UHGV virus genome: UHGV-1428848
Reading direction: 5' to 3' (one strand)
DNA length: 64,000 bases
Source: a virus
The translations under genes were made by a program, and so were the position numbers. Shown here one piece after another: positions 22,082 to 27,658 of this stretch. The stretch's first letter is position 1; every line of letters starts with the position of its first letter. The notes beneath the pieces are model-generated. The model was not told the origin of the DNA, ran no database searches, and saw nothing but the letters and a program-made list of their open reading frames with translations.

Positions 22082-22339
22082 TTAACCACCAATACCTGGA
22101 GTTGGCGTAACAGTCCAAAGACCTTCATTAGCAGTGATCCATTCAGTACGCTGATTTTCTTCATATACTGTAGAATATGCTGCTTTTTCAGAAGGGAATG
22201 TCTGATAATGAGCACCAGAAATTTTGTGAACATCAGAATAAAGAGGGAAAGCTACAGAAATTTCTTTACCCTGAATTGTACCACCATCAACTGCTTGGTC
22301 AAATGTTTTGATATTAACATAACCGCGAGTACTAGCCAT
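22082..22339 (-). CDS. soc: Soc, small outer capsid protein
   Basis: 85 aa; MASTRGYVNIKTF... and EISVAFPLYSDVHKISGAHYQTFPSEKAAYSTVYEENQRTEW match recalled T4 Soc. Confidence 0.8.
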   Translation of the reverse strand: MASTRGYVNIKTFDQAVDGGTIQGKEISVAFPLYSDVHKISGAHYQTFPSEKAAYSTVYEENQRTEWITANEGLWTVTPTPGIGG

Positions 22340-22355: not shown

Positions 22356-22565
22356 TTAAATTACATGATTATTTATAATAAATTCTCGCGGAACGTTAAA
22401 ATATCCGATTTTAGTTAATATAACAACATCACCGTTAATAATTACCGGAGAATAATCTTCTGGAGCATTAAACTTCCAATGGGCTCTAATATTATATCCA
22501 TCAGAACCAAATGCTCGACTAGCCGGTCTCCCGGCTTTTTGCCATGCATAAAAATCAAATTTCAT
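22356..22565 (-). CDS. hypothetical protein (69 aa)
   Basis: ORF track. Confidence 0.45.
   Translation of the reverse strand: MKFDFYAWQKAGRPASRAFGSDGYNIRAHWKFNAPEDYSPVIINGDVVILTKIGYFNVPREFIINNHVI
22372..22379 (-). promoter_or_regulatory. T4 late promoter (TATAAATA) upstream of soc
   Basis: Minus-strand TATAAATA ~35 nt upstream of soc ATG; soc is a late gene. Confidence 0.5.
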
Positions 22566-22762
22566 TTTGAATGCTCTATAATTAATTTTAAGGCTTCTTC
22601 GCTGACAAAAATTTCGTCAGGACCTTCTTCTATAACCCAATCAACCATACGAAGTTGATTAGTTAAGAGCTCACATACGAGCTCCTTGTTATAATCTTTA
22701 AATAGCTGGTCAATACGTTTCTTATGGGCTTTCTTAAGCTGACGCTTATTTAAACGAGCCAT
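22562..22762 (-). CDS. hypothetical protein (66 aa)
   Basis: ORF track; ATGA coupling. Confidence 0.45.
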   Translation of the reverse strand: MARLNKRQLKKAHKKRIDQLFKDYNKELVCELLTNQLRMVDWVIEEGPDEIFVSEEALKLIIEHSK

Positions 22763-23280
22763 TAATAACCTCGGTCTTGACGAGCGAAGTTTTCAGCATT
22801 TTTCAGGTAATAAAGTTTAAAGATTTCTTCAGCTGACATTCCAAGAGCAATAAATTTATTCATGAAAAAGTGAAATTGGTCAATCAGTTCAAATTTAATT
22901 TCAAGCTGATCTTCAGGAGATAAATCTTGAATTTTCTTGGATTGCATTTCAGAATAACGTTTCTTCCAAGGTTTCCATACAGCAGAAGCTTCTTTTTCAC
23001 CATTACTCATACCACCAAGAGAAGTATATAGTTCGCGAGTTTCATCTGCGATATAATCGTCTTGGTTTCGCAACCAAGCAAGAACTTCTCCTGCGGTTTC
23101 AAGTGAATCAGGATGACGATTTGTTTCTGGTTTATCATTAGCCAAACGAATCTGTAAATGCCGCTGCATATCAAGCATAACCTGCAGTGGGTCAATATTG
23201 TGCATAATATTCTCAGCATATGCACGATTTGCTTTATCAACACCTTCGATCAAATGAGCACATTCATTAAAGTAAGCCAT
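22762..23280 (-). CDS. 56: dCTP pyrophosphatase (MazG-like dCTPase)
   Basis: 172 aa from ATG at 23280 (MAYFNE...), matching T4 gp56 length; the longer track ORF uses a non-ATG start. Confidence 0.8.
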   Translation of the reverse strand: MAYFNECAHLIEGVDKANRAYAENIMHNIDPLQVMLDMQRHLQIRLANDKPETNRHPDSLETAGEVLAWLRNQDDYIADETRELYTSLGGMSNGEKEASAVWKPWKKRYSEMQSKKIQDLSPEDQLEIKFELIDQFHFFMNKFIALGMSAEEIFKLYYLKNAENFARQDRGY

Positions 23281-23351: not shown

Positions 23352-23406
23352 ATGGTACAAAAATTAATGGCACTTGTTAATGCCATAAAAGGTAATAAAA
23401 ACGTAT
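23352..23406 (+). CDS. micro-ORF (18 aa) with perfect SD, plus strand
   Basis: AAGGAGGA - 6 nt - ATG; MVQKLMALVNAIKGNKNV; only SD-led plus-strand ORF in an otherwise gene-free gap. Confidence 0.25.
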
Positions 23407-23425
23407 AGCTTTTACTATTTCTGCT

Positions 23426-23550
23426 ATGGTAGGAATTTTACTCTGGAACTTTATTTTATCACCAATTGCAATTGCGCATGGTGTTAATATTCCAGTAGTT
23501 ACTCTTGATACATTCGTAGATCTAGCATTTGCTTTAGTTGGGTTAATTTA
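23426..23550 (+). CDS. hydrophobic peptide ORF (41 aa), plus strand
   Basis: MVGILLWNFILSPIAIAHGVNIPVVTLDTFVDLAFALVGLI; no clear SD; frame overlaps the upstream micro-ORF. Confidence 0.2.
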
Positions 23551-24582
23551 AATCTTAGCATATTTAGATAGCCGCATTTTAGCCATCAACCCCTGGGCAA
23601 TATTATTTTTCATATATTCCATAATTTGTTCAGGGGTTGCACCTTCCTTTCTAATCATATCATTGACATCTTTTGATTTCCAGGGAGATTTATCCCAAAA
23701 CATAACCCTTTCTCCTGCATCAACTAATTTAGTCATTCGCTTAATAGTGTCAGGATGACGAGGTTCATTATCTAAAACCCACACACGTCTATCTTTAAAT
23801 GGAACAACTTCTAGGTCTAATTGACCACCTGTAATAGCTATACCATTTTCAATAAAAAGTGAATCTATAGGTCCTTCTAGAACATATACATCACCATCTT
23901 TAACTCGTTCAACACCGTAAATTTTTGTTGCCTCAGGATAAGCTTTAATGGTGATATATTTTTGAGGAGCATCTTTCTTTAATGCACGTCCTTGAAAAGA
24001 CTCAGCTTTTCCATTAGCATTATAAATTGGAATAACAAGACGAGGCTCAGAAATTTCCTTTTTGTATGTTCCCGGTGCTATGCTATTAACTAATTTAGGC
24101 CATTCAGTTGTAAACCAAAGATATTTCCATTTATCCTTTGGAATACAACGAGCTTTTACATATTTTATAATTGGATGGTCTTCCGCCAGTTTATCTAATC
24201 TAACACATGACGGAAGAGATTTAATTATTTTCTTCTCAGGTTGTTTAGGAAGTTCTTTAGGTTTTTCTACTGGACGACTTTTACCTTTTTCTTTTTCTTT
24301 TCTTATTTCAAAGATATACTCACGATATAAATCAGGTTCAAACTCCTTTAAATATATTCCGATTGGTGCATGATAGTTACAGTTATAACAATGAATATTT
24401 CCTTCATTATTATCGCCATAATACCATCCACGGGCTTTATTTTGATCGGTTTTTGAATCTCCACAAACGGGACATCTAAACCGTAATTTAAAAGTTGAAC
24501 TATTATTTACTTGTGCGAATTTAGGTAAATGAGCCAATGCACGGTATGCAAACTCATTATCAATCCAAGGTATTGATGACAT
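23548..24582 (-). CDS. 61: DNA primase
   Basis: 344 aa (T4 gp61 342); zinc-ribbon CPVCGDS...CYNC plus Toprim region. Confidence 0.9.
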   Translation of the reverse strand: MSSIPWIDNEFAYRALAHLPKFAQVNNSSTFKLRFRCPVCGDSKTDQNKARGWYYGDNNEGNIHCYNCNYHAPIGIYLKEFEPDLYREYIFEIRKEKEKGKSRPVEKPKELPKQPEKKIIKSLPSCVRLDKLAEDHPIIKYVKARCIPKDKWKYLWFTTEWPKLVNSIAPGTYKKEISEPRLVIPIYNANGKAESFQGRALKKDAPQKYITIKAYPEATKIYGVERVKDGDVYVLEGPIDSLFIENGIAITGGQLDLEVVPFKDRRVWVLDNEPRHPDTIKRMTKLVDAGERVMFWDKSPWKSKDVNDMIRKEGATPEQIMEYMKNNIAQGLMAKMRLSKYAKI

Positions 24583-24584
24583 TT

Positions 24585-24749
24585 TTACTCTTCTTTTTCT
24601 TTAGATTCCTCTTTTTTCTTTTTAGGAATCTGTTCAGGACCTTTATTTACTACAGCACCTGACGTTGTTCCAGTGGAGATATTTTCAGGATTACCACCTG
24701 AATCTCCAGCTACCATATCTTCTTTAATAAATTCTTTATATGTTTTCAT
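24585..24749 (-). CDS. hypothetical protein (54 aa)
   Basis: Hand-translated MKTYKEFIKEDMVAGDSGGNPENISTGTTSGAVVNKGPEQIPKKKKEESKEKEE. Confidence 0.4.
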   Translation of the reverse strand: MKTYKEFIKEDMVAGDSGGNPENISTGTTSGAVVNKGPEQIPKKKKEESKEKEE

Positions 24750-24750
24750 A

Positions 24751-25377
24751 TTAACCTCTATTCATAAAAGCATTAAAAATTTGGTCATCAATAGAAACAT
24801 CTACTTTAGACTGTTTTTCTGATGGTAATTCATATCCACATATTACAATTTTGTGATCAATATCAAAATACACAGAAGCAATATGATTAATGATGTTTTC
24901 AGTAAAGTCTAAATCAACATCAATATCTTTTTGACCACAGCCCAAAGGATAAATAATGCGAGTAATTCGATTATCTTTAACAAAGATTCCACCGACATAC
25001 TCTGTGCTGCGTTTAAAGTCTACACGCCAACGAAATGAAAAATATTCAGGCTCTTTATGAGCTCTGCTCATAGGACACAACGAGTAACTAGAATAAGAGA
25101 TGTCAAATCCTACGCCTTCAATATGAGCCAAAGTATCATGATTAAACCAATTATAATCGTACGCCAAATCCATTAGATTATAATATGTAAAAGGCACCGG
25201 ATTAACGTCATTAATCACAAGCATGTAATTAGCAACTGCTATAATTTCATTGTTTTTAACGAATACAAACCGTGATTGATGCGAATGACCTGGACCCGCG
25301 TTTTCACGATTAATGATATAACACTGGGCACCTTTATATTTGTATGTATCTTTGCACTTGTGCATTTGATAGAGCAT
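24751..25377 (-). CDS. hypothetical protein (208 aa), gene 61.2 position (candidate AdfA-like anti-DarT factor)
   Basis: Size and position between primase and spackle; functional label is by recalled synteny only. Confidence 0.4.
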   Translation of the reverse strand: MLYQMHKCKDTYKYKGAQCYIINRENAGPGHSHQSRFVFVKNNEIIAVANYMLVINDVNPVPFTYYNLMDLAYDYNWFNHDTLAHIEGVGFDISYSSYSLCPMSRAHKEPEYFSFRWRVDFKRSTEYVGGIFVKDNRITRIIYPLGCGQKDIDVDLDFTENIINHIASVYFDIDHKIVICGYELPSEKQSKVDVSIDDQIFNAFMNRG

Positions 25378-25670
25378 TATTCACCTACCACTTCAGCGAT
25401 GATATTTTTATTATTAAAGTTTTTATCGCAATACAGAACATAATTATACTGCATTACACCACCAGACTTAAGTTGTTTTTGCACTTCAGCTTTCATTTCA
25501 GGACGATCACGCTCAACGATATTCATAATATCCGCTTCAATTTGAGTTTCAACTTCAGTCTGATCCGCAGTCATAGACCATTCGCACAAATCTTTATCAT
25601 AACCTGCCATAACAGGCTGAGCAGCGCAAGAAGCTAAAGCAAAAATTGTAGCAAAGATAAATTTTTTCAT
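25377..25670 (-). CDS. sp: Spackle, periplasmic lysozyme inhibitor / superinfection exclusion
   Basis: 97 aa with cleavable signal peptide MKKFIFATIFALASCAAQPVMA; T4 Sp is 97 aa at this position. Confidence 0.65.
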   Translation of the reverse strand: MKKFIFATIFALASCAAQPVMAGYDKDLCEWSMTADQTEVETQIEADIMNIVERDRPEMKAEVQKQLKSGGVMQYNYVLYCDKNFNNKNIIAEVVGE

Positions 25671-25730
25671 GATAATCTCCTCAGTAGTTTATGTTTATAT
25701 AGTATCTCAATTTCCAACAAAAGTAAACAG

Positions 25731-25988
25731 TTATTTTAAAATTTCTGCGTAATCACATGTTACAAACTGTTTCTCTAGCTTGACGATTTTACGAAAGTAT
25801 CTTTTGCATTGGCGAATCTGCCTCTTCGTAGGGCGAACAGCAAACTTAATAAATTCCACTCGACCAAATGGAGGACTTTCTTCTGCTGGAATATCTAACA
25901 CCAATTCCCACGTATCTGCAATAAGTGCTTTGAATTGCGTATTTTTCCTGACGTTATACGGAGTAGGTTTAAATAAAACAATATGCAT
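25731..25988 (-). CDS. hypothetical protein (85 aa), gene 61.4 position (candidate TifA-like)
   Basis: ATG at 25988 with GAGGA SD, directly after dmd stop; basic protein. Confidence 0.4.
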   Translation of the reverse strand: MHIVLFKPTPYNVRKNTQFKALIADTWELVLDIPAEESPPFGRVEFIKFAVRPTKRQIRQCKRYFRKIVKLEKQFVTCDYAEILK

Positions 25989-25989
25989 A

Positions 25990-26172
25990 TTATCCTCGGC
26001 AATCCACTTCACATACTTTCTTGTCATCAATGAAAGCTTTAACTAATGCTTTATTAACTTCAGCATATTGAGTAGTAGCCCATTGAACGTCATCTTTCAT
26101 CATTGTGATTTCTTTAGTAAACATACTTTCGTTCTTAAACCACCCCATAAAAACTACTTTTACCAATTCCAT
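25990..26172 (-). CDS. dmd: Dmd, inhibitor of host RnlA/LsoA toxins
   Basis: 60 aa as in T4 Dmd; first gene after gene 41. Confidence 0.7.
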   Translation of the reverse strand: MELVKVVFMGWFKNESMFTKEITMMKDDVQWATTQYAEVNKALVKAFIDDKKVCEVDCRG

Positions 26173-26197
26173 AACAATCTCCTCATTTAACCAACAA

Positions 26198-26223
26198 GAC
26201 TACTATACCATAGTCTTGTCAGC
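26198..26223 (-). promoter_or_regulatory. T4-type early promoter
   Basis: Minus strand GTTTACAAGCTGACAAGACTATGGTATAGTAG. Confidence 0.5.
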
Positions 26224-26230
26224 TTGTAAA

Positions 26231-27658
26231 CTAAAATTTTAATTCATTTGCCAAAGCATCTAACTGAGCTCGAGTGGATTCATTTCTTTGATAGCGATTC
26301 TGCTCAGCTTGTATCTGTTGTGAACCTGCTACCTCACTCACTTCAGTTGGAGTAGAATCTTGTTCAATTTCTACCCATTTCTGATTTCCTTTTTGAACAC
26401 CCATCAAAAACTTATTCCATTTGTTCTTATCGCCATATCGTGATTTGATTTGCTTAATGAGTTGTTGTTCAGCAGCTGCTAGCTCCTCGGTTTCAATGAC
26501 CGCAAGCATAAAATCGGCTGTTGCTGGAAGACCGGCAGATTCTGCAATATCGCTCATGTTAACATCAGAAGAATCCCAAGCTTGTTTACCAACCTGTGCT
26601 GCAGTCCAAAGAACAGTTTCGGTTTCAACAGCAAGAGCACGCAATTCCTCTGCAATAGCTTTAACAGTTGTGTAACTATTTTCTGAATAAACTCTAATGC
26701 GGCAAGATTTACAAATACCTAGATAGTCGACAATAATGATTGTTGGAACAAAATTCTTCTTGAGCTTTAATTCATTTAAAAGTGATCGAAATGTATTAGC
26801 GTCTGCTCCACCAGTAGGATATTGCTTAACGATTAAACGACCGAGAGTAGATTTCTCACGCCATTTTTCCATTTTTCCTTTATACTCGGCGTAAGAAATA
26901 TGTCCATCATCAATATCGTCAAGAGAAACATCGAGCATATTAGCATCAATACGTTTAGCGCAGACTTCTTCTGCCATTTCCATGGAGATATAAAGAACGT
27001 TATGACCAAGCTGCAAATAATCTGCTGCTAATGAACAAAGTCCTAATGATTTACCAACGTTAACGCCAGCCATTAAAACGTTCAGTGTTCCAGTCTCAGC
27101 TCCGCCTTTAGTAATTTTGTTCAGAATTCTGAGTTTAAATGGAACCTTACGAGCTTTATTCATATAAGATAGCCAACGTGCTTCGTAGTCATCCATCCAA
27201 TCATGACCAACGTAACTATCAAATGAAATTGATAATGCTTGACGCATGATGTCAGGAATAGCACCAACATCCGGCATTTTCTTATTTCGTTTTTCCGGAG
27301 GAAGCTCAGCATTAGTTTGAATTTCGATTATTTTAGACGTAGCATTAAACATCGCCCTTTGCTGAACATATTTTTCTGTTTCTTTTACTAACCAGCTGTG
27401 GTCTTCCGGAGAATCAGCTAGTTTTGAAATAAGTGTTTTTACACCAGAATATTCCGTTTCAGTAAATGAACTATTTTCTAATGCAACATTTAACGCATTA
27501 ATAGATGGAACGCTATGATACTCATTAACATGAGATTTAATTAATTTGAACGTATTTTTAGCTGGACCACTTTCAAAATATTCTGAATCCATATATGGCC
27601 AAACTTTTGAAAAATAAGCTTGATCAAATATAAGATGAGAAAGAATAATTTCTACCAC
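26231..27658 (-). CDS. 41: replicative DNA helicase (DnaB-like)
   Basis: 475 aa as in T4 gp41; Walker A GVNVGKS and RecA-fold motifs. Confidence 0.9.
   Translation of the reverse strand: MVEIILSHLIFDQAYFSKVWPYMDSEYFESGPAKNTFKLIKSHVNEYHSVPSINALNVALENSSFTETEYSGVKTLISKLADSPEDHSWLVKETEKYVQQRAMFNATSKIIEIQTNAELPPEKRNKKMPDVGAIPDIMRQALSISFDSYVGHDWMDDYEARWLSYMNKARKVPFKLRILNKITKGGAETGTLNVLMAGVNVGKSLGLCSLAADYLQLGHNVLYISMEMAEEVCAKRIDANMLDVSLDDIDDGHISYAEYKGKMEKWREKSTLGRLIVKQYPTGGADANTFRSLLNELKLKKNFVPTIIIVDYLGICKSCRIRVYSENSYTTVKAIAEELRALAVETETVLWTAAQVGKQAWDSSDVNMSDIAESAGLPATADFMLAVIETEELAAAEQQLIKQIKSRYGDKNKWNKFLMGVQKGNQKWVEIEQDSTPTEVSEVAGSQQIQAEQNRYQRNESTRAQLDALANELKF

Follow-up and report, generated by a model that had tools for sequence, protein, structure and literature searches.

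What are the five small genes that lie between the primase and helicase genes of this phage, and does the block that they form amount to a counter-defence locus, as an initial annotation of the DNA had proposed? Within the window (the whole 64,000-nucleotide stretch of viral DNA analysed here), the genes are tightly packed on the minus strand at 24585-26172, flanked downstream by gene 61 for DNA primase (23548..24582, minus strand, 344 aa) and upstream by gene 41 for the replicative helicase (26231..27658, minus strand, 475 aa). All five ORFs are present on that strand in the order and with the sizes first described. We consider it very probable (about 0.9) that the block is a T4-type accessory cluster between primase and helicase, an “anti-TA island”, in a Tequatrovirus. 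Srikant et al. 2022 (PMC9391042) gave the name “anti-TA island” to the corresponding T4 series, 61.1-61.2(adfA)-sp-61.4(tifA)-dmd, and the block is in that sense already known and ordinary apart from gp61.1. The counter-defence description holds for three of the five genes, dmd, tifA and adfA, but it does not extend to sp, whose product Spackle acts in superinfection exclusion (PMC7677548), or to gene 61.1, which has no assigned function.

Four of the five gene products have Pfam matches far over the cut-off (AdfA, 446.1 bits; T4_Spackle, 150.3 bits; Dmd, 156.9 bits; DUF7279, the TifA family, 73 bits) and all five have PHROG family matches, which argues that these ORFs are real genes and not chance ORFs. 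Antisense ORFs on the plus strand, such as one of 97 aa at 25344-25637, are without support and we regard them as spurious. Gene order, strand, gene lengths and overlaps are the same as in the T4 island, and the intergenic spacers are identical or nearly so, whereas DNA identity per gene is 95-99% and the proteins depart from their T4 counterparts by no residues in TifA and Dmd, two each in Spackle and gp61.1, and nine in AdfA. The window AdfA is identical to the protein of Bas36 (Paracelsus), so that the allele is of the Bas36 type and not of the T4 type and the block is a mosaic. In the flanks, gp41 differs from T4 gp41 at one residue, the primase is collinear with T4 gp61 (342 aa) but carries a 2-aa EK insertion (KEKEKGK versus KEKGK, 24280-24300), and, unlike T4, the window has no dam between genes 56 and 61. 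The 1.9-kb block is present in 540 phage records at 80-99% DNA identity, and its carrier here is a Tequatrovirus identical to none of the records searched. The Mosigvirus RB69 also carries dmd, tifA, sp, adfA and 61.1, likewise ordered, in its 41-61 interval, which further contains imm, imm.1 and four ORFans. TifA of RB69 is 57% identical to the window TifA and lacks the C-terminal 15 residues, and the RB69 gp61.1 is 92 aa long, compared with 54 aa in the window. No evidence contradicts the gene identities.

Transcription of the block would run leftward and early, as two tightly packed units. The first unit would consist of dmd and tifA, read from an early promoter upstream of them at 26202..26230 on the minus strand (TTTACA, 17 nt, TATAGT, with TG before the -10 hexamer; 10/12 matches). 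The sequence of this promoter is also found in T4, in which an early promoter ahead of dmd drives dmd-tifA (PMC9391042). The second unit would start at a likely promoter in the tifA-sp spacer, take in sp, adfA and 61.1, and continue into gene 61. The 60-nt spacer is identical to that of T4 throughout, and the candidate T4-type early promoter within it (25699..25728, minus strand; GTTTACT, 17 nt, TACTAT) scores under the threshold of a generic sigma-70 scan; we take it to be a promoter from its match to the T4 early-promoter consensus. An early assignment is in keeping with T4, where the RNA and the protein of 61.2, sp, 61.4 and dmd are all early (PMC9697503 supplement). Overlapping the dmd-tifA promoter, the 41-dmd spacer holds a stable stem-loop (26189..26224, minus strand; -20.2 kcal/mol, z = -4.4), equalled in stability by 0 of 200 shuffles and differing from T4 by a single base that makes a G-C pair into G-U; it would form only in read-through RNA from gene 41. 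A scan of the block found no intrinsic terminator, and an Rfam scan of 23500-27000 returned only a chance miRNA match (E = 0.92).

The first unit contains the two genes for which the agreement with T4 is complete. The product of dmd (gene 61.5; 25990..26172, minus strand), labelled as 60-aa Dmd from the outset, is identical to T4 Dmd at 60/60 residues, matches PF17587 over its full length, and aligns through residues 1-60 with PDB chain 5hy3_B (“Antitoxin Dmd”, RnlA-bound; E = 1.8e-37). The dmd stop codon and the ATG of tifA (gene 61.4, ToxN inhibitory factor A; 25731..25988, minus strand) are one base apart. This ATG, at 25988, is preceded by a GAGGA ribosome-binding site and gives a protein of 85 aa, as annotated in T4; the 99 aa in the ORF list result from extension to an upstream TTG within dmd. 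T4 gp61.4 is TifA (PMC9391042), with a role published in that work and in PMC10853763, and the window protein is identical to it at 85/85 residues, is basic as had been claimed (pI 9.83; 17 K+R versus 9 D+E), and has a DUF7279 score to set against a cut-off of 24.5 bits. A PDB sequence search with TifA gave no matches. The central basic cluster K55, R56 and R59, replaced in the RB69 TifA triple mutant K55A/R56A/R59A (PMC10853763), is present here and invariant in the alignment.

By mechanism, Dmd binds and blocks the RNase toxins RnlA and LsoA, and TifA binds ToxN and RNA, trapping the ToxN endoribonuclease in an inactive ribonucleoprotein. We expect the phage to be insensitive to RnlAB and LsoAB. 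Since its one copy of tifA is of the weaker type, with Phe at residue 41, we also expect it to behave towards toxIN as T4 does, overcoming the system when chromosomal but not at plasmid level. The description of the block as a known site of escape mutations and amplifications agrees with the literature, in which one route is segmental amplification of dmd-tifA with TifA F41S (PMC9391042, PMC10853763) and another is the R164H change in RB69 AdfA (PMC11825919). Neither form of TifA escape was found here: the alignment gave no stronger allele (Ser or His at 41), and by tblastn each block gene is single copy within the window, so that no dmd-tifA amplification is visible, with the caveat that assembly could have collapsed a tandem amplification and hidden it. 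Phe41 in a single copy is the ancestral T4 state and not the escape state, and family membership is unaffected. Direct repeats around dmd-tifA, such as those of 19 nt at ribosome-binding sites (25665 and 26167), were considered as traces of past amplification and rejected, since they are short and of a kind expected by chance or from common ribosome-binding-site sequence.

At the head of the second unit, sp (25377..25670, minus strand) encodes a 97-aa Spackle that shares 95/97 residues with the T4 protein (two differences) and matches PF25676. Spackle is a periplasmic protein of superinfection exclusion and an inhibitor of the gp5 tail lysozyme (PMC7677548), and all of the gp5-lysozyme contacts named in that work (S32, M33, T34, A35, Q37 and N76) are present, as are both cysteines, C29 and C81. 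Solved structures are 6x6o and 7cn6; the crystallised mature protein begins at residue 23 in 7cn6, and the window mature Spackle corresponds to that chain. The annotated signal peptide is indeed intact: it spans residues 1-22, is hydrophobic and ends in V-M-A, the cleavage region is retained (MKKFIFATIFALASCAAQPVMA, cut, GYDKD), and the mature protein is residues 23-97. One of the substitutions, A20V, falls at position -3 of the signal peptide, and signal-peptidase sites tolerate a change such as this one. Once exported to the periplasm, Spackle inhibits the gp5 lysozyme of superinfecting phages. For Dmd, TifA and Spackle alike, the roles given here come from experiments on identical or nearly identical T4 proteins.

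The adfA gene (gene 61.2, anti-DarT factor A; 24751..25377, minus strand), whose ATG shares one base with the sp stop codon (TAATG), follows sp. Its 208-residue product matches PF23813 from end to end (residues 1-208 cover positions 1-211, the whole of the model; the cut-off is 27 bits) and is identical to T4 gp61.2 at 199/208 residues (96%), 61.2 being the gene renamed adfA (PMC9391042). The labels for this ORF and the 85-aa ORF, originally given from position and size only, are thus borne out at the sequence level, and the three ORFs aligned to the T4 61.2, 61.4 and dmd products are plainly related to them. AdfA is predicted to bind the DarT1 ADP-ribosyltransferase. His165 of the window protein aligns with R164 of RB69 AdfA, which is 70% identical and whose Arg marks a non-neutralising allele (PMC11825919); according to the same source, R164H is the escape change that permits DarT1 neutralisation. 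His occupies the equivalent position in 14/16 family clusters, and W117 is unusual among those 16 clusters. W117 is one of the nine residues at which the window protein departs from T4 AdfA (I55, P62, Y66, T82, A84, W117, C147, S190 and D193). AdfA of the T4 type blocks DarT1 only weakly, and T4 does not need it to resist DarTG1 (PMC11825919), so that plating on DarTG-carrying hosts would not report on adfA. Although it has the permissive His, the window AdfA probably resembles the T4 allele in blocking DarT1 only weakly and in not being what chiefly determines DarTG1 resistance, and the label “anti-DarT” may suit the AdfA family more than what this particular allele does.

What, then, would confer resistance to DarTG1? 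The main anti-DarTG1 factor is AdfN (gp30.3), a DNA ADP-ribosylglycohydrolase. We lean slightly towards a reading in which the window AdfA, though a genuine member of its family, is not what counters DarTG1 in this phage; AdfN, encoded elsewhere, would serve instead, and the AdfA allele would be tuned to another DarT homologue. This reading is favoured by the identity of this AdfA with that carried by Bas36 and by the greater amount of amino-acid change in AdfA than in its neighbours: relative to T4, 9/30 changed codons are nonsynonymous in AdfA, compared with 1/43 in gene 41 and 0/5 in tifA and dmd together. Against it, adfN was not found within the window, and His165 is of the permissive kind. 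Such a division of labour refines the assignment of the block to a T4-type anti-TA island and does not exclude it. An AlphaFold2 model of AdfA built from 16 sequences was of moderate quality (pLDDT 72, pTM 0.56; 48-57 for the other four models), a Foldseek search of the PDB with this model returned nothing with E <0.1 or TM >0.2, and a PDB sequence search gave no matches. The fold-search outcome is in line with a published claim that AdfA has no structural relatives.

The remaining gene, 61.1 (24585..24749, minus strand), encodes a 54-aa protein that has a Lys/Glu-rich C-terminal tail and is identical to that of T4 at 52/54 residues, and its resemblance to a capsid-targeting sequence and to the major capsid protein gp23, as judged from alignments, is a new lead; we found no literature on gp61.1 function or on a link between gp61.1 and the capsid-targeting sequence. 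T4 IPI, IPII and IPIII are packaged, gp21-processed and injected proteins, and IPI* inhibits the GmrSD restriction enzyme. Residues 1-10 of gp61.1 (MKTYKEFIKE) match the IPII/IPIII capsid-targeting sequence (MKTYQEFIAE) at 8/10 positions, and the shared Y4, F7, I8 and E10 include both the targeting residues (4 and 7) and those for gp21 processing (8 and 10) (PMC9026906). The pattern occurs once in a six-frame translation of the window, and a search of the close relative HEMP5, whose genome is complete, found its strict form in only three genes at internal-protein loci and in gp61.1. Beyond this N-terminus the body of the protein resembles the gp23 N-terminal arm and not any T4 internal protein: residues 2-38 align with gp23 residues 57-93, a stretch comprising the cleavage site and N-terminal arm (E = 1e-8 and 6e-11), and a family profile run against the PDB had T4 gp23 as its sole match (E = 1.4e-5), placing the predicted cut, E10/D11, in register with the gp23 cut, E65/A66. 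Where the aligned stretch ends is presumably where the Gol peptide, the activator of the Lit protease, begins. In 66 of the 72 sequences with the core motif located (70 gp61.1-family proteins and 2 gp23), the conserved core has a [LIVMF]-x-E that ends 0-2 residues ahead of it. A gp61.1 profile run against 1.84 billion representatives found 51 proteins at E <= 1e-3, all of them small and none of gp23 length, so that the case for a gp23 link is built on pairwise BLASTP and tblastn together with the PDB profile search.

We tentatively read gp61.1 as a prohead-targeted small protein that would be cut by gp21 after Glu10, leaving a 44-residue peptide that mimics the arm of mature gp23 (gp23*) and carries a Lys-rich tail, to be retained in the head and perhaps injected with the DNA, although this falls short of an even chance. 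Like the T4 internal proteins, it has a capsid-targeting sequence at its N-terminus and a gp21-type site (I/L-x-E) following residue 10; it differs from them in being much smaller and in its genomic setting, since 61.1 adjoins primase gene 61 in every phage examined and is not at an internal-protein locus, and the late-promoter motif TATAAATA is absent from the block. Other observations also weigh against packaging. T4 61.1 RNA is early and its protein was not detected in a whole-cell proteome study (PMC9697503 supplement), we found no virion proteomics that lists gp61.1, and the long gp61.1 forms (120-250 aa) lack an N-terminal capsid-targeting sequence, having instead an N-terminal domain with no Pfam match and no homologue in a complete Tequatrovirus genome. 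More doubtful still is the speculation that gp61.1 represents a fourth class of T4-like head-packaged protein, whose released copy of the gp23 arm may fill gp23 N-arm binding sites or be injected as a decoy for capsid-recognising host factors. That gp61.1 has no function of its own, and is a remnant left by partial duplication of the 5' portion of gene 23 or a leader ORF translationally coupled to the primase gene, is improbable: the 61.1 stop codon lies 2 nt ahead of the gene 61 ATG, a homologue sits directly upstream of gene 61 even in the distant T4-like phages Ac42, Aeromonas AS4, Klebsiella Kpn6N and vibriophage phi-pp2/KVP40, and the T4 protein went undetected, but homologues occur in 1397 phage records, the motif (M/V)(V/I)AGD..G..NIA.G.TSG.V..GP and a basic tail are kept over 51 clusters mutually <50% identical, and the changes from T4 comprise five synonymous codons and two nonsynonymous ones, a conservation of amino-acid sequence unlike that of a leader ORF or relic.

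For the T4-type island as a whole, the value of the finding lies in annotation and prediction: the T4-type Dmd, TifA and AdfA alleles predict how the phage would behave on hosts carrying RnlAB or LsoAB, ToxIN and DarTG, and the block marks a stretch of the genome in which amplification or point escape mutants are to be expected. Knowledge of the Dmd, TifA, AdfA and Spackle proteins themselves is unchanged by it. The gp61.1 lead, if true, would give a role to a small protein of about 1400 T4-like phage genomes, from coliphages to phages of Acinetobacter, Aeromonas and Vibrio, and would extend the small set of proteins packaged in the T4 head by a mimic of the capsid protein.

The window comes from a T4-like phage genome of the genus Tequatrovirus. 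Between primase gene 61 (23548-24582, minus strand) and helicase gene 41 (26231-27658, minus strand) it carries five closely packed minus-strand genes: 61.1 (24585-24749, 54 aa), 61.2 (adfA, 24751-25377, 208 aa), sp (25377-25670, 97 aa), 61.4 (tifA, 25731-25988, 85 aa) and dmd (25990-26172, 60 aa). Their order, lengths and overlaps all equal those in the T4 reference record; the sp stop codon and the 61.2 start share one base, and gaps of only 1-2 bases lie at the 61.2/61.1, 61.1/61 and dmd/61.4 junctions. An ORF lister starts 61.4 at a TTG within dmd, which makes it 99 aa; the ATG at 25988, with GAGGA ahead of it, yields the 85 aa annotated in T4. All five genes have PHROG family matches, and a Pfam scan placed 61.2 in AdfA (PF23813, 446 bits, full length), sp in T4_Spackle (150 bits), 61.4 in DUF7279 (73 bits) and dmd in Dmd (157 bits), finding no family for 61.1. 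The 1.9-kb region matches 540 phage records at 80-99% DNA identity (best 98.5%), and the best record over the surrounding 25 kb reaches about 97%, so the phage is a new mosaic of known sequence rather than a listed isolate. The block itself is a recombinant mosaic: AdfA and gp61.1 have exactly the sequence of their counterparts in phage Paracelsus (Bas36), TifA and Dmd that of T4 and not of Bas36.

The initial annotation had named the 61.2 and 61.4 products by position and size. Alignment to the T4 61.2, 61.4 and dmd products bears these names out, all three being related and two identical: the 208-aa protein shares 199 residues with T4 AdfA (9 changed), and the basic 85-aa TifA (pI 9.83) and the 60-aa Dmd are the T4 proteins. 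gp61.1 differs from T4 at 2 residues and Spackle at two (A20V and K53E). The Spackle signal peptide is indeed intact (the crystallised mature chain begins after residues 1-22), and the published gp5-lysozyme contact residues S32, M33, T34, A35, Q37 and N76 (PMC7677548) are present, as are both cysteines. Solved structures exist for Spackle (6x6o, 6xc0, 6xc1, 7cn6, 7cn7) and Dmd (5hy3); a PDB search returned none for AdfA or TifA. Given this identity or near identity, mechanisms shown experimentally in T4 apply here, and TifA would bind ToxN together with RNA and hold the toxin in an inactive ribonucleoprotein, as shown for the T4 protein (PMC10853763). Likewise Dmd would block the RNase toxins RnlA and LsoA, and Spackle would act in the periplasm against the gp5 lysozyme of superinfecting phages (PMC7677548).

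The block is already known, and Srikant et al. explicitly named it a possible 'anti-TA island' (PMC9391042). Reading it as a counter-defence block holds for the gene identities and their interpretation, but Spackle is not a counter-defence protein, and the name AdfA is better read as placing a protein in its family than as a role demonstrated for T4-type alleles. The literature agrees that escape mutations and amplifications arise here: RB69 escapes DarTG1 through AdfA R164H, a position where T4 naturally has His (PMC11825919), F41S or F41H in T4 TifA strengthens ToxN inhibition (PMC10853763), and T4 overcomes plasmid-borne toxIN by tandem dmd-tifA amplification between 6-10 bp microhomologies (PMC9391042). 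In the window, TifA residue 41 is Phe, the ancestral weaker allele; K55, R56 and R59, which are replaced in the RB69 TifA triple mutant K55A/R56A/R59A (PMC10853763), are all retained; and each block gene is present once, a count in which assembly could have collapsed tandem repeats. AdfA His165 aligns with RB69 position 164, which is His in 14 of 16 family clusters, Arg in one and Asn in one. In a two-hybrid assay, binding to DarT1 is strong for RB69 AdfA R164H; T4 AdfA binds weakly and rescues RB69 only if overexpressed; deleting adfA leaves the DarTG1 resistance of T4 unaffected, the main factor there being AdfN (gp30.3) (PMC11825919). We did not find adfN within the window.

Amino-acid change gathers faster in AdfA than in its neighbours: among codons changed relative to T4, 9 of 30 are non-synonymous in AdfA, against 1 of 43 in gene 41 and 0 of 5 in tifA and dmd together. 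Its family is narrow (16 clusters at 68% identity or more among 5.8 billion proteins; 487 phage records). Trp117 of the window protein is Lys, Arg or Gln in 15 of the 16 clusters. An AlphaFold model of moderate quality found no fold relative in the PDB, in agreement with the published statement that AdfA lacks structural homologues.

T4 makes both the RNA and the protein of 61.2, sp, 61.4 and dmd early (PMC9697503 supplement). An early promoter identical in sequence to that of T4 lies upstream of dmd (26230-26202, minus strand; TTTACA-17-TATAGT with an upstream TG), and GTTTACT-17-TACTAT in the 60-nt tifA-sp spacer (minus strand), itself identical to T4, is likely a second. A 15-bp stem-loop (26189-26224, minus strand; -20 kcal/mol, z = -4.4) lies past the stop codon of gene 41 and ahead of dmd, overlapping the dmd promoter. 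Its sole base unlike T4 turns a G-C pair into G-U, and it may act as a terminator, or in the processing or stability of RNA that reads through from gene 41. On the other flank, T4 has dam between genes 56 and 61, whereas the spacer here (23374-23547), bordered by gene 56 (22762-23280, minus strand), lacks it, and dam has no match anywhere in the window. A 41-aa plus-strand ORF (23426-23551) in this spacer has its match in the C-terminal portion of T6 Dam.1 / Paracelsus bas36_0143; stop codons break up the 5' part here. The primase carries a 2-residue insertion (24280-24300, minus strand; KEKEKGK against KEKGK in T4 and Paracelsus) in a short plus-strand CTTTTT repeat, consistent with slippage. 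The exact T4 late-promoter motif, TATAAATA, occurs just three times in the window; the copy at 22370-22377 (minus strand) sits a short way upstream of an 85-aa ORF (22082-22339, minus strand) whose N-terminal sequence resembles that of the small outer capsid protein Soc.

gp61.1 is far more widespread than the other block genes: tblastn matched 1397 phage records, among them phages of Klebsiella, Acinetobacter and Aeromonas. The gene immediately ahead of primase is a gp61.1 homologue in Ac42 (Acinetobacter), AS4 (Aeromonas), Kpn6N (Klebsiella) and vibriophage phi-pp2/KVP40. Its first ten residues, MKTYKEFIKE, equal the IPII/IPIII capsid-targeting sequence MKTYQEFIAE at 8 of 10 positions, among them positions 4 and 7, which targeting requires, and 8 and 10, on which gp21 processing depends (PMC9026906). 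The T4 protein begins MKTFKEF, as does IPI. The targeting pattern occurs once in the window's six-frame translation, and in the complete genome of HEMP5, a close relative, the strict pattern marks only three internal-protein-locus genes and gp61.1. Residues 2-38 align with gp23 residues 57-93 (43% identity to T4 gp23, E = 1e-8; 45% to gp23 of Acinetobacter phage 133, E = 6e-11). A family profile run against all PDB sequences matched T4 gp23 alone (E = 1.4e-5), and in that alignment the predicted cut between E10 and D11 lines up with the site, between E65 and A66, where gp23 is known to be cut during maturation. Against 1.84 billion representative proteins the profile recovered 51 clusters, with short forms of 50-70 aa and long forms of 120-250 aa, sharing the core (M/V)(V/I)AGD..G..NIA.G.TSG.V..GP and, after it, a Lys-rich tail. 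A [LIVMF]-x-E motif ends 0-2 residues ahead of the core in 66 of 72 sequences with the core located (70 family members and 2 gp23), and members with IVEAEISGD or FLKEAEVSGD nearly reproduce the gp23 site FLTEAEIGGD. In long forms (Ac42 2183-2635, our locus L008; proteins P0039, P0048, P0053 and P0069) the first 100 or so residues make up a conserved domain, Y..R...L...F..W.A...G.ID..G..., for which Pfam gave no match and one complete Tequatrovirus genome no homologue. Some are also extended at the C-terminus by about 100 residues.

We favour a reading in which gp61.1 enters the prohead and is cut by gp21, leaving a peptide that mimics the gp23 N-arm, and give it about one chance in three. Against it, we found no late promoter in the block, T4 61.1 RNA is early and its protein undetected (PMC9697503 supplement), the gene lies away from the internal-protein loci, and no N-terminal targeting sequence is present in the long forms. 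Databases have registered the gp23 similarity, as automatic names like 'major capsid domain-containing protein' attest; our literature search found no paper on a gp61.1 capsid-targeting sequence or gp23 likeness. The block as such is ordinary and already known, and the gp61.1 lead is the novel part.
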